64,000 nucleotides of DNA. It comes from a virus (taxonomy: Duplodnaviria; Caudoviricetes). Positions 7,303 through 38,584 of the stretch are shown one piece after another. Numbering within the stretch: position 1 is the stretch's first letter; each line of letters opens with the position of its first letter. The notes beneath the pieces are model-generated. The model did not search any database. It was not told the DNA's origin and saw only the letters and a program-made list of their open reading frames with translations. The stretch lies in the IMG/VR virus record IMGVR_UViG_3300045391_002568, positions 2,044-66,043 of that record. One strand, written 5' to 3'. Made by a program: the position numbers and the translations under genes.

Positions 7303-7674
7303 ATGAGCAGAGTCCCGAAGTTATTGACCACCGAAGAAATGATCGACCTTTACCGGCGCGTCCCGCTATTCGTGGAGCAGTTGCGCGCCAAGGTCATAAA
7401 GGCGATGGCAGACGGGGATCAGGTGATTGCCGCGCACGCCCGCAAGGTGCACGACTCGCGGCCATTCCTGATGCGCGTCCGGGCTTTCGGCCGCAACGAG
7501 CTGCCGTACCTGGACCTGTACGACATGCTGGCGCTGTTCGCTGTGATGGTGGACATCGAGGAGCCACGGCTGAAGCGCCTAGTGCGCGGCACCGAGAAGA
7601 ACGGCCGGAGGCCTGGAGCGGGCTTTCCGAGGCCCAAGAAGCTGATCGTGCATCCGGGCCTTGCCGACGATTGA
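7303..7674 (+). CDS. Hypothetical protein, possible regulator
   Basis: First gene of the rightward operon (MSRVPKLLTTEEM...); helical; position typical of regulators (inference). Confidence 0.55.
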   Translation: MSRVPKLLTTEEMIDLYRRVPLFVEQLRAKVIKAMADGDQVIAAHARKVHDSRPFLMRVRAFGRNELPYLDLYDMLALFAVMVDIEEPRLKRLVRGTEKNGRRPGAGFPRPKKLIVHPGLADD

Positions 7675-7696: not shown

Positions 7697-8560
7697 ATGA
7701 CTGATTCCGCATCCACCGCGGCGCCCGATTTTTTCAATCGCCGCGTGCTGGTGTTCGACACCGAGCTGACGGATCTTCCAGACCGGTGCCCGGAGGGCCC
7801 GGAGATCATCGAAAGCGCGTGGTGCGAGCTGGAGCCTGCCGCGCACATAGGCGGATTTTTCTTCCTGGAGAAGCCGTGGACGGCCGAGTTCATCACCCAG
7901 GCTGCCTACCATGACACGGACCGACCGAGCAGCTGCGGTGCGCTGGCGGTGCATGGAATCCTGCCGCAGGACGTGGCGGGGCAGCCAAAGTTCAGTGTCA
8001 CCGATCACCTTGGTGGAGCTGACGTTGTGCTGATCGGTCACAACATCGATGTCGACTGGAATGCCGCGCGCCGTTACGCCGCCGAGGTGCCCGCCGACGA
8101 CGATCTGTTCGGCAAGCGCGGTGAGCTCGATGATGTGCCGCGGATCTGCACCCTCGCTATGGCGCGGCGCGTCTATGGCCCGGCCGTGCAGCATGGTTTG
8201 GGCGCGCTGATGTTCCACATTCGCGGCTACACCCCGGAGACGCGCGACATGGTGAGGGGCGCTCACAGCGCGCTGTCGGATGTGATGATGACCCTCACGT
8301 TGCTGCTGGACATTGCCAAGCGTCGCCCGGAGATCCGATCGTGGAAGGCGATGTGGGAGTTCAGTGAGGACTGTCGGTTGCCGCGGTTCTGGCCGCTCGG
8401 CAAGTACGGCCCGAAGGAGAATGGCGGCGTTGGCCAGCCGCTCGAGGCGGCGCGCAACGACCTGGGATACCTCGACTGGGTGCGCGACACCTTCTGGCAG
8501 AAGGATCCCTACCTGGTGCGCGCCGTGAACCTGATGCAGCGCGGCGAGCTGAAGCCGTGA
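7697..8560 (+). CDS. DEDDh 3'-5' exonuclease (ExoX-like)
   Basis: VLVFDTELTD, LIGHNIDVD, ICTLAMARR, AHSALSDV; C-terminal WPLGKYG...GYLDW; AGGAGAGG RBS. Confidence 0.85.
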   Translation: MTDSASTAAPDFFNRRVLVFDTELTDLPDRCPEGPEIIESAWCELEPAAHIGGFFFLEKPWTAEFITQAAYHDTDRPSSCGALAVHGILPQDVAGQPKFSVTDHLGGADVVLIGHNIDVDWNAARRYAAEVPADDDLFGKRGELDDVPRICTLAMARRVYGPAVQHGLGALMFHIRGYTPETRDMVRGAHSALSDVMMTLTLLLDIAKRRPEIRSWKAMWEFSEDCRLPRFWPLGKYGPKENGGVGQPLEAARNDLGYLDWVRDTFWQKDPYLVRAVNLMQRGELKP

Positions 8561-29734: not shown

Positions 29735-30226
29735 GTGGACCTCGAGATCGTTCGCTACGCGTACCTACCGAAGATCGCAACGCTGGGATTCCTGCAAGCC
29801 GCGAATCTCAAGCTCGACACGATCGAGGAAGCGTGGTCGCCGGATCCTGACGGCCCCGGCGGGCAGCGCCGCGAAGCAAATCTCGTCGAGTCCTGCGTTC
29901 CTGACGGCCGCTACCGCCTGATCCCGCACGACGGACCGACGAAAAAGGACGTGTGGGCGCTGGTAAACGAGAAACTCGGCGTGTACGCGCCAGGCACGCG
30001 CCCGGCAGGCCAGGCATGGGGGCGGGACGCCATCCTGATCCATGTGGGGAACACCACGAAGGACATCATGGGGTGCATCGCGGTTGGCCTGCGCGCCGGA
30101 TGGGACGCAAATCAGCCCCATGTGTACGACAGCCAGGCTGCCATCAACATCCTGCGCAACATGCTCGGCCGCGACGAGCACAGCCTGATCATCCGCCCCT
30201 CCCGGGGCACCAACGAGTCCCCGTAG
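29735..30226 (+). CDS. DUF5675 family protein, putative endolysin
   Basis: SCVPDGRY, ILIHVGNT.KD..GCIAVG, DSQAA motifs; flanked by membrane genes. Confidence 0.75.
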   Translation: MDLEIVRYAYLPKIATLGFLQAANLKLDTIEEAWSPDPDGPGGQRREANLVESCVPDGRYRLIPHDGPTKKDVWALVNEKLGVYAPGTRPAGQAWGRDAILIHVGNTTKDIMGCIAVGLRAGWDANQPHVYDSQAAINILRNMLGRDEHSLIIRPSRGTNESP

Positions 30227-30235
30227 GAGATCGCC

Positions 30236-30592
30236 ATGACCGCCGAAGACATCAAGGTCATCCTGAACTATCCCGGCATCCTGTACGTGCTCATGGTCCT
30301 CGGCTCGCTATTGAGCATGGGAATGCAGCTGCGCGACGCGCGCAAGAATGGCGCGACCATCCCTATTGCAGAATATTTCCTTCGGCTCGAAACCGTTCTG
30401 GCCATTGGCGCCAACACCATCGCATTTCTGGCGCTGATCGTTACCGACTCCCTCAACTTCGTCGGCGCAATCAGTATCGGGTACGCACTGAACAACCTAG
30501 CCGACTCCAAGTCGGGCGGTCGCACCGCTGCCATCGTGGACAGCATTCCGGACAGCAATACGCAGGTGCAGAAGCCCGTCCAGCAGGAGTAG
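30236..30592 (+). CDS. Putative holin
   Basis: Multiple hydrophobic segments in 118 aa, next to the putative endolysin. Confidence 0.6.
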   Translation: MTAEDIKVILNYPGILYVLMVLGSLLSMGMQLRDARKNGATIPIAEYFLRLETVLAIGANTIAFLALIVTDSLNFVGAISIGYALNNLADSKSGGRTAAIVDSIPDSNTQVQKPVQQE

Positions 30593-30641
30593 GCTTGCAG
30601 CAGCCGGTTTTTTGATCGACAACCACAAGCCTGGAGGACAC

Positions 30642-31112
30642 ATGAAACGTCTGATGATGATTCCGATGCTGGCGCTGATGGTGGGCATGGCCGCATGCTC
30701 CGGATGCGCTTCCACGAACCCGCTTTCTGCCGCTGATGGTATCGACGAGCGCGGATATGCCGTGATGGGCATGTACAACGCCTTCCAGAAAGAAGTTCTG
30801 AAGGTGGCGCTCGATGAATCCCTGCCCGCGAACGTGCGCCTCGCCGCTGCTGACGCCGACAAGGCTGCGGTGGATGTCATCGGGGAGCTCTCTTCGGCGC
30901 TCGCCCTGTATCAGGAGGTGCAGCTGGCGCTGGCGGTCGGTGATACGCCGCAGGAGGACCTCGCGGCCGTGATTGCGCACCTTACGAGCTGGGTCGAGCA
31001 GGGGCAAAAGGTCGTGACGGGCCTGAAACGCGCCGTCGAGGATGCTGCGCGGCTGAAGAAAAAGACCGCCAGTACCGCGACCCCCTTCCACTTCGCACAC
31101 GGAGCGGCCTAA
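30642..31112 (+). CDS. Lipoprotein (possible spanin component)
   Basis: MKRLMMIPMLALMVGMAAC/SGC lipobox-like; helical body; GGAGG RBS. Confidence 0.65.
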   Translation: MKRLMMIPMLALMVGMAACSGCASTNPLSAADGIDERGYAVMGMYNAFQKEVLKVALDESLPANVRLAAADADKAAVDVIGELSSALALYQEVQLALAVGDTPQEDLAAVIAHLTSWVEQGQKVVTGLKRAVEDAARLKKKTASTATPFHFAHGAA

Positions 31113-31115
31113 GCC

Positions 31116-31439
31116 ATGTCCCTCATCAGCACCATTTCCCTGATCGCGGCCGCTCTGCGCCAGCTGGCCGTCCTCGTTCCGATCTTCGTCCGCGACGAGA
31201 AGGTCGATGACATCAGCAAGCTCCTGAACACGCTGGCCAATCTCGGCGAGCGCGGTGCGGAAGCGGTCGAGTCGGTTCGCGCCGACCTCGAAGCCCTCGT
31301 GGAGAAGCTCAATTCCATGCATGGCGTCAGCGTCGAGGACCGCGAGGCACTGATCGGCGAGATCCGCGAACGCAGCCAGCGCATTCAGGATGCGGTTGCG
31401 CACCTGAGACCCGAAACCGAAGCGGGGCCGTCCGACTGA
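31116..31439 (+). CDS. Helical protein with hydrophobic N-terminus (possible spanin partner)
   Basis: MSLISTISLIAAALRQLAVLVPIFV followed by coiled coil. Confidence 0.55.
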   Translation: MSLISTISLIAAALRQLAVLVPIFVRDEKVDDISKLLNTLANLGERGAEAVESVRADLEALVEKLNSMHGVSVEDREALIGEIRERSQRIQDAVAHLRPETEAGPSD

Positions 31440-31466
31440 TCATCGGGCAGCGACCGTGACGATCAA

Positions 31467-31495
31467 GGCCGCCGGCGCAAGCCTGCGGCCTTTTT
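31467..31495 (+). terminator. Intrinsic terminator
   Basis: GGCCGC-loop-GCGGCC followed by TTTTT. Confidence 0.7.
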
Positions 31496-31540
31496 CATTG
31501 GGGGGTATGATCCCCGCGTCGTCAGCCGCAGGATGGGGCC

Positions 31541-31846
31541 GTGAAGATCAAAATCGACGCCTTTTCTGGCATTCGGCCGCGCGTTTCGCCGCGACTCCTT
31601 GGCAACGAAGAAGCAACCATCGCGGTGAACTGCCGGCTGTACAACGGCAAGCTGGTCGCGTTCCGCGAGCCGGAGCGAGTCGCCGAAGGTGCCATCGGTA
31701 CCGCAATGATGGTTACCCAGGTCGGCGTAGATGTGGTCAGCTATGGCCTCTACCTGCACGTTATGCAGGTTGGTGCTGACGTTGTGAGCCAGGCGCAGCC
31801 GGCGCTGCAGGTCACCCAGGCCGGCGCGGATGTGGTGAGCGCCTGA
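31541..31846 (+). CDS. N-terminal fragment of tail nozzle/stabilisation protein fused to three (T/M)Q(V/A)GxDVVS repeats
   Basis: MKIKIDAFSGIRPRVSPRLL..EEATIAVNC.L.NGKL is the usual start of this nozzle family (recalled); same frame as 32930. Confidence 0.7.
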   Translation: MKIKIDAFSGIRPRVSPRLLGNEEATIAVNCRLYNGKLVAFREPERVAEGAIGTAMMVTQVGVDVVSYGLYLHVMQVGADVVSQAQPALQVTQAGADVVSA

Positions 31847-31885
31847 ATAGATATTGCATAACAATGGCATTACAAGGGCATTCCT

Positions 31886-32926
31886 ATGACCATCAAATAC
31901 GCAGACAGCTTCGGCGCCTACAACGCCATTGCTGATGTCCAGAAGGCTGGATACTCGAGCGCCGGAATCGCTGGCTTCGCGCTTCAGGGGGCCACGAGCC
32001 GCCGCGGTGGCAAGGCCCTGCGCGCCTCCTTTGCGGCAACCCCCGCATTCATTCAGGTTCCCGTTCCTGGAGCTGCAGGCGCAACAGTCGCAGTGATTGT
32101 GGCCGGGCGGATATCGGACATCACCCAGGCTGTCGACACCCCGGGCCTGATGGTGGCGTTTGGCGACGACACGGTGGTCCATGTTGGCGTATCGGTGCTC
32201 ACGGACGGATCGATCCGCGTCTACCGCGGCACGGGCGGCGGCTCCACGGTGCTGGGCACCAGCGCCGCCGGCCTGATCTCTTCGGCAACTTACTTCCACC
32301 TCGAGGTGGAGGTGAAGGTGAACAACGCAACGGGCACAGTGCGCGTATTCCTGAACGGCTCCGCCGTGCCAGTGCTCGATCTGAGTGCGCAGGACACCCA
32401 GAATGGTGGAACTGCCACCATCACGAGGGTCGGAATAGGGTCGGATCGCGTCGGCAGCGTGAACTTCGACTTCTGTGACTTGGTGGTGCGTGATGGCACG
32501 ACGCAGCTCGGCGACGTGCGAGTCGATTACCTGCCGGCCAACGGCACAGGTGACACTAACGACTTCGCCACGAACGGGTCGGCCACCTCGTACCAGAATG
32601 TCGACGAGACGAGCCCGAACGATCTGGACTACAACTACTCGAGCAGCCCCGGCGCCGCCGATCTCTATGCCCTGGAGGACGTGTCGTGGGCGCCGGCCAC
32701 CATCTATGCGGTCGTGGAGAAGGTGCGCGCGAAGAAGTCAGATGCCGGAACCCGTAGTCTCACGCACGCGGCGCGCAGCAACGGGATCAGCTACGCGGGT
32801 TCCATATCGCCCTTGACCACGGACACGAAGTATTACCACAACGTCCGAGAGGTCGACCCCAACACCACGGTGGCGTGGATTGAGTCGGGAGTGAACGGTC
32901 TGCAGGTTGGCGCATCGGTGGTCTAG
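31886..32926 (+). CDS. Beta-sandwich (lectin/LamG-like) putative virion accessory protein within the inserted cassette
   Basis: IKYADSFGAY start, YFHLEVEVKV...GTVRVFLNG, DFCDLVV.D...GDVRVDYL..NG.G; AT-rich upstream spacer. Confidence 0.65.
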   Translation: MTIKYADSFGAYNAIADVQKAGYSSAGIAGFALQGATSRRGGKALRASFAATPAFIQVPVPGAAGATVAVIVAGRISDITQAVDTPGLMVAFGDDTVVHVGVSVLTDGSIRVYRGTGGGSTVLGTSAAGLISSATYFHLEVEVKVNNATGTVRVFLNGSAVPVLDLSAQDTQNGGTATITRVGIGSDRVGSVNFDFCDLVVRDGTTQLGDVRVDYLPANGTGDTNDFATNGSATSYQNVDETSPNDLDYNYSSSPGAADLYALEDVSWAPATIYAVVEKVRAKKSDAGTRSLTHAARSNGISYAGSISPLTTDTKYYHNVREVDPNTTVAWIESGVNGLQVGASVV

Positions 32927-32929
32927 GCC

Positions 32930-35215
32930 ATGGCGCGCACCATCTTTGTCTACACGAGGGATGAGTTCGGAACGCCGATATTCTTCCGATCCTCGAACCG
33001 CGCCCACTTCGTCCGCGGACCGGTTGCCGACAACAGCACCCGCCCCGTCTACTTCACCGGCGGCCCAGCGCCGCGCCCCTCGTACACGATGCTGCCTTTC
33101 TCTCTGGCAGGCGTCGGAGACAGGCCATCGGAGTTCTTTACGCTCGGCCTGCCGCGACCAGATATGTCAGCAACGCCGGTGGACTCCTCGAGCACCGAAA
33201 CGCATACCGTCAGCGTGCGCCCCGCGCTCTACAAGCAGGGCGGCAAGGTCACGTATTCGGCAAAGGCGAATGCTGCGTATACCTGGCCGATCGGCGCGAT
33301 ATCGCCCAATGGCCTCGATGACGTGCTGGTGTACATAAACTTGGGCATCCTGCACCAGCATCAAAGCGGCAGTGAGGCGTTCGATGACGGCGACCCGCTG
33401 TCGATCACCATATCCCTCCTGGTGGACACCGAGGTTGTGGACAGCAGGGTCATCAGCAGCGATCAGAGCTTCGGAGATCAGGCGAGCTCGCGGCTCATGG
33501 CTTTCGCCGGATCCTTGCGGGTTCCTGCCGCGCTGGGCACCAAGAACTATGCCCTGAAATTTGAATCAGCTGGCAGCGGCTTCACGATGTCCGAGATAGA
33601 TCGCTCTATCTACATGCTGGATATCGGCGTGTTCCACGAGAACACCACCATCGAAGTCGACCAGGACATGCGTTTCCTGTCCCCCGGGGACAACGTGCAG
33701 GTTTCCGGCGTGGGGGCGTCTTTTACCTCCCAGTCCACCAATTACGTCAACGGAACCGGTTTCTTCCCCGCCCTTTCCGAGATAGCGGAGTTCATGTCGG
33801 GGTATGCGCTGGGGTCCGGCGGGCGCGCCGCCGAGCAGACCGTCCAGACGATCAACGGCTCCAAGGAGATCATCCGGACCACCGCAAATACGATCGTAGT
33901 GCGTGGCGCGTGGCCGTGGGACGTGTCCAGCGGCGCAGGCGGGACTATCTCCTTCGATGGCCTCGAGGATGTTGGAGACGTGTCCTCGGTGCAGTCGGTG
34001 GGCTATGTGGTGACATTCCTCACCACCATCGGAAACCAGGTGCAGGAAGGACCGCCTTCGGCGATGTCCAGCCTGATTCAGACCCGCCCGGGCCTTCCAG
34101 TGCAGATTGCGGGCCTCCCCACCGGCACCAATGAGGAAGGCAGTTTCCGTTTCAGCGGGAAGCGTCTGTACAGGTCAAACGTCACCACGGACGAGATAGG
34201 GGTCCTGCAGTTCGTTGCCGAGCTGCCGATAGAGCAGACCGAATACGTCGATACGGTCAGGGCCGTGGACCTCGGAGAGCAGCTGCAAACGGACACATGG
34301 ATCATGCCGCCATCGGATCTGCACGGCCTTGTGGCGTGCCACAACGGCATGCTGGCGGGAATATCAGGCAACCAGGTGTGCGTTTCAGTTCCGTTTCAGC
34401 CTCACGCCTGGCCGACTCGAAGCCGCTTCAACATCGGCGATCAGCCCGTGGCCCTGGTTGCCGTGGGAGAGACGATCATCGTGCTCACCAAGGGGCGCCC
34501 ATCGGTGATTTATGGCTTTGAGCCAGAATCGATGCGCGTTGTGCCTGGCGATATGCCATTCCCGTGCGTGAGCGCCGATGGCGCTGTGAGCATCGGTGAT
34601 GCAGCGGTCTATCCGTCAACCATCGGCCTCGTCGCAATACCTGCGCGCGGCGCGCCCATCGTGGTGACAGAGAAGATCATGGAGAAGGAGGAATGGGCGC
34701 TCTACAACCCGAGCACCATCATCGCCGCCGAGCACTATGGCAAGTACCTCGGCTTCTATACCAACGGGGACGAGAAAAAGGCATTCCTGCTTGACCCAAC
34801 CTCCAAGATATCGGCGCTGACCGATCTGGATATCGAAGCCGTTGCCTGCTGCACGGACGAGCTCAACGGGCAGGCAATCTTCATGATCGATGACGATGAC
34901 GAGGAAATCCGGCGCTTCGATCCTGCGACCGGCGACCCAATGCCTCTCGTGTGGCGAAGCAAGGTGTTCAGCTATCAGCGCCCGTGGTGCCCTTCATACG
35001 GCCGCGTTGTCGCAGAGCTCTATCCGGTCAACTACAAGCTATACGCAAACAAGCAGCAACCCGGAAGTGTCTCCGGCGATGGCACGAGCGAGGCGAACAT
35101 GGTCCTGGTGCACGAGCAGACCGTAACATCGAGCCGCCCGTTCGCCCTGCCCGGCAACTATCTGGCCAACGCGTTCTCCATCGAAATTTCGACGCACTTC
35201 GCAGTGGTGGAGTGA
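32930..35215 (+). CDS. Tail nozzle/stabilisation protein, main body
   Basis: TIFVY..FVRGPVAD..RPVYFTGG...TLGLPRP; YVVTF.T..G.QEGPPS; KRLYRS; PPSDLHGLV..HNGMLAG..GNQV.VS.PF.PHAWP; VWRSKVF. Confidence 0.8.
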   Translation: MARTIFVYTRDEFGTPIFFRSSNRAHFVRGPVADNSTRPVYFTGGPAPRPSYTMLPFSLAGVGDRPSEFFTLGLPRPDMSATPVDSSSTETHTVSVRPALYKQGGKVTYSAKANAAYTWPIGAISPNGLDDVLVYINLGILHQHQSGSEAFDDGDPLSITISLLVDTEVVDSRVISSDQSFGDQASSRLMAFAGSLRVPAALGTKNYALKFESAGSGFTMSEIDRSIYMLDIGVFHENTTIEVDQDMRFLSPGDNVQVSGVGASFTSQSTNYVNGTGFFPALSEIAEFMSGYALGSGGRAAEQTVQTINGSKEIIRTTANTIVVRGAWPWDVSSGAGGTISFDGLEDVGDVSSVQSVGYVVTFLTTIGNQVQEGPPSAMSSLIQTRPGLPVQIAGLPTGTNEEGSFRFSGKRLYRSNVTTDEIGVLQFVAELPIEQTEYVDTVRAVDLGEQLQTDTWIMPPSDLHGLVACHNGMLAGISGNQVCVSVPFQPHAWPTRSRFNIGDQPVALVAVGETIIVLTKGRPSVIYGFEPESMRVVPGDMPFPCVSADGAVSIGDAAVYPSTIGLVAIPARGAPIVVTEKIMEKEEWALYNPSTIIAAEHYGKYLGFYTNGDEKKAFLLDPTSKISALTDLDIEAVACCTDELNGQAIFMIDDDDEEIRRFDPATGDPMPLVWRSKVFSYQRPWCPSYGRVVAELYPVNYKLYANKQQPGSVSGDGTSEANMVLVHEQTVTSSRPFALPGNYLANAFSIEISTHFAVVE

Positions 35216-35216
35216 G

Positions 35217-36683
35217 ATGCCTACCCAATACTTTTCAGGCAGAGGCCCGAGCCGGGTTCCTCTCAAGGGACAGATAACCTTTCGCGCGACGGAAGACGGC
35301 GCGTGCCTGGTGAATGATCTTCAGGTGATGCTCAACGGGGCGCCATTCACCTTCGATCCGGAGCTGACGAAACTCAAGTCGAGCAGCGGACAGTGGTATT
35401 CGAGCATCCCGAACGAGGCCACGTTCTCCGTGTCGATGAGCAACTACAACGACACGATAGTCGAGACCATGACTATCGATATCACCGGTTCATTCGGCAT
35501 CACGGGCGGCAACATCGACGACGAGCCTGACTTCCCGGGAGAGATCCTGACCGGAACCTTCTCCTTCGATCGCAAGGAGGACGATGGCAACGGCTCGATA
35601 CTATTCTCGCTCGCCGATCAGGAATACGGCCGCGTGGAGACGGACGGCCGCTATTGGAACTGCACTAAGGATCAGATCCAGATATCGATGACCGCGGCGA
35701 ACCTCGGGGATCTGCCGCTGACATTCTTCAGTCGCAGCACCGACTCAAACAGGTTCCTGACGAAGGTCGGGCTCGATTATGACGGAGGCCTATACGACGA
35801 CATCCATTTCACTCCGGCGCCAACCATTCCCCCGTATCCGACCGGGGTCCTTCTGGATGGATGGCGTGCGCGCGATGCCACGGCCGGAAGCCTCACGCTG
35901 CATGGCATAGAGTCGTCGATGCGGATCAACTCCCTGAAGGTGGTGACCGCATTCCTCGGTGGAGCCGAGTACAACCCCTATGTCGAGGTGACCGTAGGCG
36001 GTGTGACTTACGAGCTAAACGCGTCCGTCGATTCAGCGCCGGAGAACAAGGTCGGGACGTGGACACTTCCGCCAGTGGTGGACGGGAAGATCGTCATCGA
36101 CTGGGTGCCATCGTTCCCAGGGAACTCTCAGTTCTGCTTCATGGCGCTCGATCTTTCGTACACGATCATCGGGCCGTACCTTGTTTCTGTGAATGACTCG
36201 CTTCCGATCGGCAAGGGGAGTTCGGGGGTTCCTTTCCAGGGCAGAAACCTCAAGACAATGACCAGTGCCACCATAGATGGGGTCGCCCAAAGCCTCACCA
36301 ATGTGGGCCATTGGGATGTGCGCTTCACGCTGAATCGCGCCACGCTTAACTATGGTCCGCACACCATGCAGGTAAGCGATGGGAGCACTGGCAGCTCTGC
36401 CGAGGCGATCCTTGCTCCGCAGGATGGGTGGCTGCACACCACCATCGGCGCTGCGCTATTCGCAGATATTGGCCTGAGAGTCTCGGCAACGCCGGAGCTC
36501 GAGGAGGACGATCAGGTTGCCTACTCCACCGAGGATGACAAGTTGCTGGTCAATCCGGATGGCAGCTTCGTGTACTACGGCGCGATGCCCGCGGATATTC
36601 CGGCAGAGGTGTGGAGCGATGGGGACTGGACCGAGGGGGAGATTCTTCTCGGCGCCGGCAGTGGAAACGAGGATCTGACATGA
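35217..36683 (+). CDS. Putative virion structural protein (beta-rich)
   Basis: ORF track; T/S/G/D-rich composition in the tail module. Confidence 0.6.
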   Translation: MPTQYFSGRGPSRVPLKGQITFRATEDGACLVNDLQVMLNGAPFTFDPELTKLKSSSGQWYSSIPNEATFSVSMSNYNDTIVETMTIDITGSFGITGGNIDDEPDFPGEILTGTFSFDRKEDDGNGSILFSLADQEYGRVETDGRYWNCTKDQIQISMTAANLGDLPLTFFSRSTDSNRFLTKVGLDYDGGLYDDIHFTPAPTIPPYPTGVLLDGWRARDATAGSLTLHGIESSMRINSLKVVTAFLGGAEYNPYVEVTVGGVTYELNASVDSAPENKVGTWTLPPVVDGKIVIDWVPSFPGNSQFCFMALDLSYTIIGPYLVSVNDSLPIGKGSSGVPFQGRNLKTMTSATIDGVAQSLTNVGHWDVRFTLNRATLNYGPHTMQVSDGSTGSSAEAILAPQDGWLHTTIGAALFADIGLRVSATPELEEDDQVAYSTEDDKLLVNPDGSFVYYGAMPADIPAEVWSDGDWTEGEILLGAGSGNEDLT

Positions 36684-38584
36684 CGATCAAGGTGCTTTCA
36701 GCGATTCGCAAGCAGCTGAACTACCAGGCGAACGGCTGGCGCAGCAAGGAGGTGCCGGACGTTTCGAGCGTGCCGCGCATCCTGTATTGCGTGAGCGACC
36801 ACTGCCCGCCGGCAGATGGGTTGCTTGGCAACGACGGCTCGACAATCGAGGCCGCTCCGGTTGGAAGCGAGGCTGTCTACGGCGGCTACATGAGCGTGTT
36901 CGGCATCAACTTCGGCACGAATCAGAACGGCATCCGCGTTCGCAATCACACCGACGAATCTGATCCCGGGACCGATATCGTGACTCTCGGCGGCCGGATC
37001 ATTGACCTTGGGCCGTGCAATGGACGCCCGGACGTGCAAGTCGTCCATTTTCAGGTCGGGACGAGCGTTACGGGATTCTTCTCCGTGGAGACCGTGAACG
37101 GGACCTCCAACAAGCTCGCGTGGACTGCGCAGCCGGGCCGCATCCTGTACGTCAGCAACAATGACGCGAACGGCTACCCGCTGGGCAATGACTCCACCGC
37201 GCTCATTAATGACTCTGCGCACCCGTGGCGCTATGTGCAGCAACCGCTGAACGCCGGCGCTGACATCTTCAATGATGTCGTGCAGCCCGGAGATCAGGTT
37301 GTCCTACTTCCGACCAGCGAGGGCACGGAATGGAATGACACCGGCTATGCCAATCATTTCTTCCGCGTGCGCCTGAATGGCTTCGTCAGCGGCACCGAGC
37401 CCACCGGCGATCCGGGCGATGGCTACGTGCAGCTGCTGGGATACCCGAGCACGCGCAAGCGCGCGCACATCATTGCAACGGCGGGATTCCGTGGGTGCAT
37501 CGGCGGTCACAGTGACGAGGGCGATGTGCATGTGGGCGGCATTCGTTTCGTCATCGGGAATCTGACCGCAACCTGCCCCGGCGGAGCCGCGGTGAAGTTC
37601 GGAGGCCCTGCCAACCTTGCGGTAGGGGCCGACTACTGGCGCGTGGTGAACAACATCTTCGGAGACTGGGATGCGGAGTGGAGGTCGATCACGGCTGATG
37701 GATCGGGCTCATCGAAGCAGGGCGGGATATCCGGCAACGGCCGGCATCTGTACGTCGTCGGTAACCAGGTACGGAACATCGGCGGCGGCCAGCTCAATCA
37801 CGGCGTCTATTTCGACGACGACTCGCAATACGGAAAGCTAGCCTACAACTGGATCCATAAGGTCTACGGCGGCAACCTGGTGCAGTTCAATGCAAACGCC
37901 GGCGTTACTGACATCCTCGAGTGGGACGTGCACTCGAATCTCCTGGGCAATGGATTTCGGCATGGGTTCAACATCGCGGCGCTGTGCCAGAAGATGCGCT
38001 TCTGGAACAACATCGTCTACAACACCTCCGGCGCCGGCGTGCGCTGGGCCGACACCCCTTCTGGCGATGGGAGCTGGTTTCGCTACAACACCCTGGCGAA
38101 CTGCGGCCTGGCAGGCATCAATGTCCCGTACAACGGCGCGTGCATCATGCTCGACTCGAATGTGCCTGTCGGCAGGGAGATCGACATTTCCGACAACCTG
38201 CTTGTCGGCAGCAATCAGAGCACGGCGTATATCTGGACCGCCGGCGAGACTTACGACGGCCTGACGGTCGACGGGAACCACTACCACGGGGCCGGGGACC
38301 CGCCCGCGATCGACCTGAACGCCGGCTCCGGGGATCCGCTGTTCACCAACACGACGAGCTTCATCACGCAGCGCACCGCGATTGCGCTCGATGACGTGCC
38401 GCGCGCGCTGGCTGCGCCAATTCGCGCCGGAGGAAGGACAGTAGACCTCACGCTCTTGCTGGGCTCACCATGCGACGGTGCTGGCGGAACCGCCGTGCCT
38501 CCTGATGATGATTTCCACATCTTCAAGGACCGGCCATCGCCGCCCTCCATCGGCGCGATGGAAGTTCTTTTCACTGAGGGGTAG
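36680..38584 (+). CDS. IPT/TIG plus right-handed beta-helix protein (putative depolymerase/receptor-binding protein)
   Basis: ATGA overlap; SVFGINFG, repeated NN/NI-type beta-helix turns, C-terminal L.L..GSPC.GAG...SIGAME; paralogue of 53594..55537. Confidence 0.65.
   Translation: MTIKVLSAIRKQLNYQANGWRSKEVPDVSSVPRILYCVSDHCPPADGLLGNDGSTIEAAPVGSEAVYGGYMSVFGINFGTNQNGIRVRNHTDESDPGTDIVTLGGRIIDLGPCNGRPDVQVVHFQVGTSVTGFFSVETVNGTSNKLAWTAQPGRILYVSNNDANGYPLGNDSTALINDSAHPWRYVQQPLNAGADIFNDVVQPGDQVVLLPTSEGTEWNDTGYANHFFRVRLNGFVSGTEPTGDPGDGYVQLLGYPSTRKRAHIIATAGFRGCIGGHSDEGDVHVGGIRFVIGNLTATCPGGAAVKFGGPANLAVGADYWRVVNNIFGDWDAEWRSITADGSGSSKQGGISGNGRHLYVVGNQVRNIGGGQLNHGVYFDDDSQYGKLAYNWIHKVYGGNLVQFNANAGVTDILEWDVHSNLLGNGFRHGFNIAALCQKMRFWNNIVYNTSGAGVRWADTPSGDGSWFRYNTLANCGLAGINVPYNGACIMLDSNVPVGREIDISDNLLVGSNQSTAYIWTAGETYDGLTVDGNHYHGAGDPPAIDLNAGSGDPLFTNTTSFITQRTAIALDDVPRALAAPIRAGGRTVDLTLLLGSPCDGAGGTAVPPDDDFHIFKDRPSPPSIGAMEVLFTEG

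Follow-up and report, generated by a model that had tools for sequence, protein, structure and literature searches.

A phage tail-nozzle gene split in frame by a whole tail gene with a lectin fold in an IMG/VR virus genome

How does a phage build a tail nozzle when the nozzle gene is divided by another complete gene? This question is raised by positions 31,541 to 35,215 of a 64-kb stretch of DNA (the window) that was analysed from the IMG/VR virus record IMGVR_UViG_3300045391_002568, a 66,043-bp record rated complete. The locus consists of three open reading frames (ORFs). The nozzle gene is interrupted in frame after approximately 55 codons by a complete gene for a tail protein with a lectin fold. 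The N-terminal segment of the nozzle protein is thus carried by a separate ORF, 1.1 kb upstream of the nozzle body, unlike in the one-polypeptide nozzles of the PHROG 511 type. We consider it quite probable that the hexameric tail-nozzle gene of a GP4/Bcep22/phi24B-type podophage was split long ago and that the split became fixed, with products that work as separate proteins and an ORF1 tail that tethers ORF2; the tethering, judged on its own, is possible rather than probable. A sequence-only reading had described the same split and attributed it to a cassette bounded by GCCAT repeats. Its ORF coordinates, the GCCAT positions, the 1236-bp distance between them and the 812-residue deletion product were all correct when the sequence was read again. 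The features of the locus are as follows.

31541-31846, plus strand: ORF1, 101 amino acids (aa), GTG start.
31541-31705, plus strand: ORF1 residues 1-55, identified as the genuine N-terminal segment of the nozzle by the hidden Markov model (HMM), Bcep22 gp67 and PHROG 511 matches.
31691-31695, plus strand: left copy of GCCAT; its partner lies at 32927-32931.
31706-31846, plus strand: ORF1 tail, residues 56-101 and the TGA stop, with three Q(V/A)GxDVVS-type repeats.
31718-31738, 31766-31786 and 31817-31837, plus strand: repeats 1, 2 and 3 of the ORF1 tail, from a motif scan.
31847-31885, plus strand: spacer between ORF1 and ORF2, 39 nt, AT-rich with a guanine-cytosine (GC) content of about 36%, from reading of the sequence.
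31886-32926, plus strand: ORF2, a concanavalin-A-like (lectin/glucanase fold) phage tail protein of 346 aa, from PHROG 2448, AlphaFold and Foldseek.
32903-32923, plus strand: last strand of ORF2 with the ORF1-repeat motif, from the motif scan.
32930-35215, plus strand: ORF3, the nozzle body, 761 aa, from PHROG 511, 8jov_A, gp67 and the HMM.

The assignment of ORF1 and ORF3 to one nozzle protein is carried by three alignments. In the PHROG 511 profile, positions 320-369 align to ORF1 residues 1-52, and positions 383-843 align to ORF3 residues 17-756 (E-value 5e-94). In the Bcep22 nozzle gp67, residues 4-48 are 47% identical to ORF1 residues 3-47, and residues 133-453 are 33% identical to ORF3 residues 359-685 (E-value 5e-49). 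The site of the cut is resolved by an HMM of the nozzle N-terminus, for which the first 125 residues of 18 family members with neither split nor insert were used. Residues 1-55 of ORF1 correspond to HMM positions 2-57 (E-value 4e-24) and ORF3 residues 3-74 to positions 58-125 (E-value 2e-9), without gap or overlap. Because the two matches are contiguous on the HMM, the cut lies between neighbouring profile positions, and no part of the profile is missing or present twice. This is the contiguous coverage that the sequence-only reading had predicted for Bcep22-like nozzles, and its in-frame split is borne out by all three alignments. The ORF3 of L004, an IMG/VR contig with a related locus, matches the HMM in the same way. 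The profile of ORF3 and its relatives also matches PDB 8jov_A (six chains) with an E-value of 1e-72, and the GP4 and phi24B homologues are named a hexameric nozzle in a phi24B preprint. No other block of the nozzle family is as conserved as the N-terminal segment on ORF1. Short matches to this segment in a representative search mostly look like fragments from contig ends or frameshifts and were left uncounted as splits.

What is the gene that divides the nozzle? ORF2 matches PHROG 2448, a family to which no function is assigned, with an E-value of 3e-23. Its AlphaFold model is a concanavalin-A-like beta-sandwich with a predicted local distance difference test (pLDDT) score above 90. The best PDB matches in Foldseek are the alginate lyase Aly36B and the lectin domains of calreticulin and ERGIC-53 (E-value 1e-7), and template modelling (TM) scores of up to 0.9 are reached by many phage proteins with lengths of 320-360 aa, among which one is annotated as a virion structural protein. 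The Pfam family Laminin_G_3 is reached by only 2 of 41 ORF2-family members. The earlier description of a complete, lectin-like gene of 346 aa therefore holds for the fold; 'lectin-like' is fair, although the fold by itself does not tell a lectin from a polysaccharide lyase. ORF2 belongs, as a complete protein, to a family whose members are free-standing tail proteins of about 340 aa, and it has its own start and family-typical termini. Its homologue in Tetraselmis viridis virus S20 follows the tape-measure gene, and that in Sphingomonas phage Lucius is part of a putative tail fibre; the ORF2 family thus occurs in phage tail modules. Pfam gave no match in ORF1, ORF2 or ORF3 and no intein. With no Pfam match of any kind in the insert, a transposase, reverse transcriptase or nuclease was not detected, and the PHROG and Pfam searches thus agree with the earlier statement that the insert lacks a transposase, reverse transcriptase and homing nuclease.

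The split is not peculiar to the window. The five closest relatives of ORF3 are 60-69% identical to it, measure 753-784 aa and all start at the same MAR(T/S) residue. In L004, the same order is found, with a 101-aa ORF1 homologue, a 346-aa ORF2 homologue and the start of the ORF3 homologue. ORF2 homologues with 63-75% identity are present on contigs of 70176, 15164, 33172 and 42843 bp, the sizes of the four other contigs that carry an ORF3 relative, and a 102-aa ORF1 homologue is present on the 70176-bp contig. The length (101-103 aa) and sequence of ORF1 are kept in five relatives. The layout of ORF1, ORF2 and ORF3 hence appears to be common to at least six genomes, the window and at least five metagenomic phages, at 60-75% identity. 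The occurrence of the same layout in independent assemblies rules out a misassembly. The ORF2 and ORF3 homologues rank equally by identity, which indicates that the parts diverge in parallel. The ratios of nonsynonymous to synonymous substitution (dN/dS) against L004 are 0.15 for the N-segment of ORF1, 0.45 for the ORF1 tail, 0.19 for ORF2 and 0.37 for the N-terminus of ORF3, so that all four parts are kept as protein under purifying selection. These comparisons argue for a split that is old, fixed and maintained, not for a fresh insertion. L004 was the sole locus recovered, from a scan of viral contigs with ORF2; a scan of metagenome contigs with ORF2 gave no locus, and profile and sequence scans with ORF3 or its alignment gave none in viral, metagenome or genome contigs. 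A blastn search of GenBank phages with the region gave no match.

The site of the split is also used in a different way by a sister clade. The nozzles of this clade (P0007-P0015) are unsplit and measure about 930 aa (32-42% identity), and they carry an in-frame domain of about 190 aa exactly at the split point. A protein atlas gave a jelly-roll lead of the Laminin_G_3 or carbohydrate-binding module (CBM) type for this domain. Homology between ORF2 and the sister-clade insert was considered and rejected, given that neither BLASTP nor hhalign found any. The two arrangements resemble each other in that an extra module of a sugar-binding type stands directly behind the N-terminal segment, and they differ in that the sister-clade module is covalent, in frame, unrelated to ORF2 and without a repeat tail. 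The presence of a domain in one clade and of a gene in the other indicates that the loop at this site has taken up a module of the sugar-binding type on at least two occasions.

How would the divided nozzle work? We propose that the locus, with a whole concanavalin-A-like tail gene placed in frame behind approximately residue 55 of the nozzle, produces three separate proteins, namely ORF1 with its N-segment and 46-residue repeat tail, ORF2 with the lectin fold, and ORF3 as the body. Between ORF2 and ORF3 there is only TAG-GCC before the ATG, that is, one sense codon, or two codons with the stop. With its ATG only 3 nt behind the stop of ORF2, ORF3 probably relies on translational coupling. The N-segment of ORF1 would pack non-covalently onto ORF3, as it does within single-chain nozzles, and would restore the nozzle fold. 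By strand pairing, the ORF1 tail would then tether ORF2, or a protein that binds the terminal strand of ORF2, to the nozzle, and would thereby achieve the equivalent of the sister clade's covalent display of a sugar-binding domain.

The tethering step is suggested by a motif that the ORF1 tail and ORF2 have in common. The tail contains three Q(V/A)GxDVVS-type repeats in the window and four in two further relatives (P0127 and P0128), and it is conserved in four relatives (L004, P0077, P0078 and P0126). The same motif makes up the last eight residues of ORF2 and matches its last beta-strand, and this C-terminal strand occurs throughout the family of ORF2-type proteins. A loose pattern of the motif occurs at four places in the six frames of the window, three in the ORF1 tail and one at the end of ORF2, against an expectation of 0.23; in L004, it is likewise confined to the ORF1 tail and the ORF2 end. 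When a matrix was derived from the C-termini of distant ORF2-family members alone, the three repeats were the top three positions in five of five ORF1 tails, with p-values of 0.0002-0.006 against shuffles in four of the five. These matches raise the idea that the 46-residue tail is a miniature 'rope' whose repeats would bind ORF2 by strand mimicry in a donor-strand style, which we put forward tentatively and regard as less likely than not. If true, each nozzle subunit would display several sugar-binding modules, and the locus would represent a preserved intermediate between whole-gene and domain insertion at the same permissive loop and may have come from a circularly permuted cassette. The origin of the tail as a diverged duplicate of nozzle residues 58-126, hinted at by MAFFT, was rejected by the HMM (score -0.9). 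C-terminal repeat extensions occur in none of the 45 ORF2-family members examined (41 aligned and four longer), and such repeats are likewise absent from Bcep22 gp63, a small virion protein encoded upstream of the fibre genes. A separate observation concerns P0127, an ORF1-type protein of 230 aa on a 1759-bp JGI contig, which has the N-segment, four repeats and then an extra domain of about 100 aa. This architecture indicates that the repeat tail can vary in length and carry a module of its own.

Several points weigh against the proposed reading. For the ORF1 tail of the window itself, the score against the distant-family matrix is weak (p 0.13). When ORF1 and ORF2 were modelled by AlphaFold as a single read-through chain, the tail had a pLDDT below 50 and did not dock confidently. 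In a donor-strand test, in which the ORF1 tail was modelled with ORF2 lacking its last strand, the tail was also disordered, with a pLDDT below 50. Complementation of ORF3 by the ORF1 N-segment is likely, a judgement drawn from homology. As read from the genes, the nozzle is probably built from separate polypeptides. Among the relatives, DNA was read for L004 alone; on the other four contigs, the parts appear to lie together as judged by the equal sizes of the contigs in base pairs.

Could the three ORFs instead be expressed as one chain, or could one part be dispensable? ORF1, ORF2 and ORF3 share one frame in the window, with offsets of 345 and 1389, and in L004, with offsets of 324 and 1368, despite spacers of 39 and 18 nt. 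This common frame in two genomes is what a single long polypeptide made by read-through of in-frame stops would require. However, read-through would have to pass three different stops in the window (TGA, TAA and TAG) and two TAA codons in L004; an Rfam scan of the region found no conserved recoding signal or structure, and ORF2 and ORF3 have start codons of their own with weak ribosome-binding sites, so that we give read-through hardly any credence. In the window, the spacer at 31847-31885 contains another in-frame stop, TAA, together with a weak ribosome-binding site (AAGGG), and the L004 spacer (7983-8000) is GC-rich and has no extra stop; both spacer lengths are divisible by three. No promoter or terminator was found in the insert and spacer region of the window. 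The sequence-only reading had left the choice between two polypeptides and excision or splicing. Separate polypeptides are the most likely of these, and excision or splicing is unlikely because the ORF1 tail, which lies inside the stretch that would be excised, is conserved as protein, and because neither an intron in Rfam (at E-values up to 1) nor an intein in Pfam was found. A further alternative is that ORF1 is a decaying leftover and that ORF3 works alone as an N-terminally truncated nozzle. The low AlphaFold confidence of ORF1 modelled alone would fit such decay, but the N-segment has a dN/dS of only 0.15 as the family's most conserved block, and ORF1 is kept in length and sequence in five relatives; decay is therefore very improbable.

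The origin of the split is a different matter. The sequence-only reading had explained it by a circular cassette of 1236 bp that integrated through a single crossover at GCCAT microhomology; as a recent event, this would leave a nozzle that needs excision or splicing or has only just begun to work as two pieces. GCCAT indeed stands on both sides of the insert, and removal of the 1236 bp between the two copies joins 51 and 761 residues seamlessly into a protein of 812 aa. However, a shared 5-mer is found in 72% of random zone pairs of equal size and an in-frame one in 36%, which places GCCAT at chance level; CCATC is a second in-frame 5-mer in the window, and GCCAT is absent from both L004 junctions. 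The microhomology argument thus falls away. A recent date is contradicted by the layout in at least six genomes, by the divergence of the insert together with the nozzle and by the conservation of the ORF1 tail as protein without an intron. The insert also lacks the marks of a mobile cassette, as its GC content equals that of the flanks without a composition anomaly and it has no recombinase or nuclease gene. The permuted order of the cassette fares better in part. A circularised insert would bring the last strand of ORF2 and the three repeats into a regular array with a period of 16-17 residues, but none of the 45 ORF2-family members has the repeat extension that such an origin would suggest. 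Recent integration is accordingly largely refuted and, in our estimate, highly unlikely. Fission of an ancestral single protein, in which a lectin-type domain was first in frame and stops and starts were gained later, differs from our preferred explanation in origin only and implies the same present function. It would account for the frame shared by the window and L004 across unequal spacers and for the single sense codon between ORF2 and ORF3, and the sister clade offers an in-frame domain at the same site. Nevertheless, a shared frame would arise by accident in roughly 1 in 9 to 1 in 27 cases and is not decisive, the sister-clade insert has no homology to ORF2, ORF2 has the start and termini of a free-standing family member, and the position of the repeats upstream of ORF2 is left unexplained. 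We therefore judge fission to be unlikely, though less so than recent integration. The old split may have come about in any of three ways: a free-standing tail gene may have been inserted into the loop, an in-frame fusion may have existed first and then undergone fission, as the shared frame favours, or the insert may stem from an ancient circular integration, as the 16-17 residue motif spacing in the circularised insert favours.

The old, fixed split that we favour can be compared with three known systems. The nozzles of the Ralstonia phage GP4 (PDB 8jov), the Burkholderia phage Bcep22 (gp67) and the Stx phage phi24B (gp57) belong to the family that ORF1 and ORF3 together span end to end. They are single polypeptides of about 580 aa, whereas the nozzle described here is encoded by two ORFs separated by a further gene, and its body of 761 aa has extra inserted regions. 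The closest precedent for the split is the Pseudomonas podophage A1002, which has a nozzle composed of gp39, the 'nozzle-rope', and gp42, the 'nozzle-base', with the fibre genes gp40 and gp41 numbered between them, and its rope is about 300 Å long and docks 11 fibre dimers by beta-augmentation (PMC13730344, PLoS Biol 2026). A1002 resembles the present locus in that a nozzle fold is distributed over two polypeptides whose genes flank fibre-type genes; its pieces complement each other by added beta-strands, and its rope is an extended region with repeated fibre docking sites. The cut differs, because the C-terminal platform and propeller parts of the rope complement the base in A1002 and the first 55 or so residues would do so here. 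In place of 11 sites on a rope of about 300 Å, there are three or four short repeats, for which docking is hypothetical, and the gene between the halves encodes a concanavalin-A-like protein instead of small fibre dimers. The likeness is drawn from descriptions of A1002. In Aeromonas phage Aeh1, nrdA is split by the mobE endonuclease gene, and the tails created by this insertion serve as interaction domains (PMC3045599). There, too, the insertion of a gene has divided an essential gene, and NrdA still functions as two polypeptides; however, the inserted gene encodes a homing endonuclease, while in the window it encodes a structural tail protein without a nuclease, and the function of the tail is hypothetical.

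The surroundings of the locus provide hints about the host and further genes. Directly upstream of the nozzle, a lysis-type block (29735-31112, plus strand) includes a PHROG 1501 protein, a membrane-rich ORF of 118 aa and a 166-aa ORF with a lipoprotein-type signal that ends in a Cys lipobox. A putative embedded spanin pair occupies the equivalent place in L004 (7160-7648, with 7332-7580 embedded). Just upstream of ORF1, positions 31435-31500 on the plus strand weakly match BjrC68, a small RNA of the Bradyrhizobiaceae, with 24 bits against a gathering score of 39 and an E-value of 0.002. This match may be a plain hairpin or a hint at an alphaproteobacterial host, to which the ORF2 homologues in Caulobacter, Brevundimonas and Sphingomonas phages also point. 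Downstream, a 488-aa ORF (35217-36683, plus strand) directly follows the nozzle and has no PHROG or Pfam match, and the next ORF, which ends at 38584, has only a faint beta-helix match.

What does a divided nozzle gene mean for this family of phages? Essential virion genes in pieces are rare. A1002, published in November 2026 and recognised from its structure, is the sole other split nozzle found in the literature search, and the present case is a second, independent one that is readable from sequence alone. The split also matters for annotation: gene callers treat the 761-aa piece as complete and label the 101-aa piece a hypothetical protein. Nozzles without any insert, those with an in-frame domain and those with a whole gene at the same site form a natural comparison series. 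This series lets one ask how receptor-binding modules are grafted onto a conserved tail core, and it also bears on whether short strand-mimic repeats can replace a covalent link.

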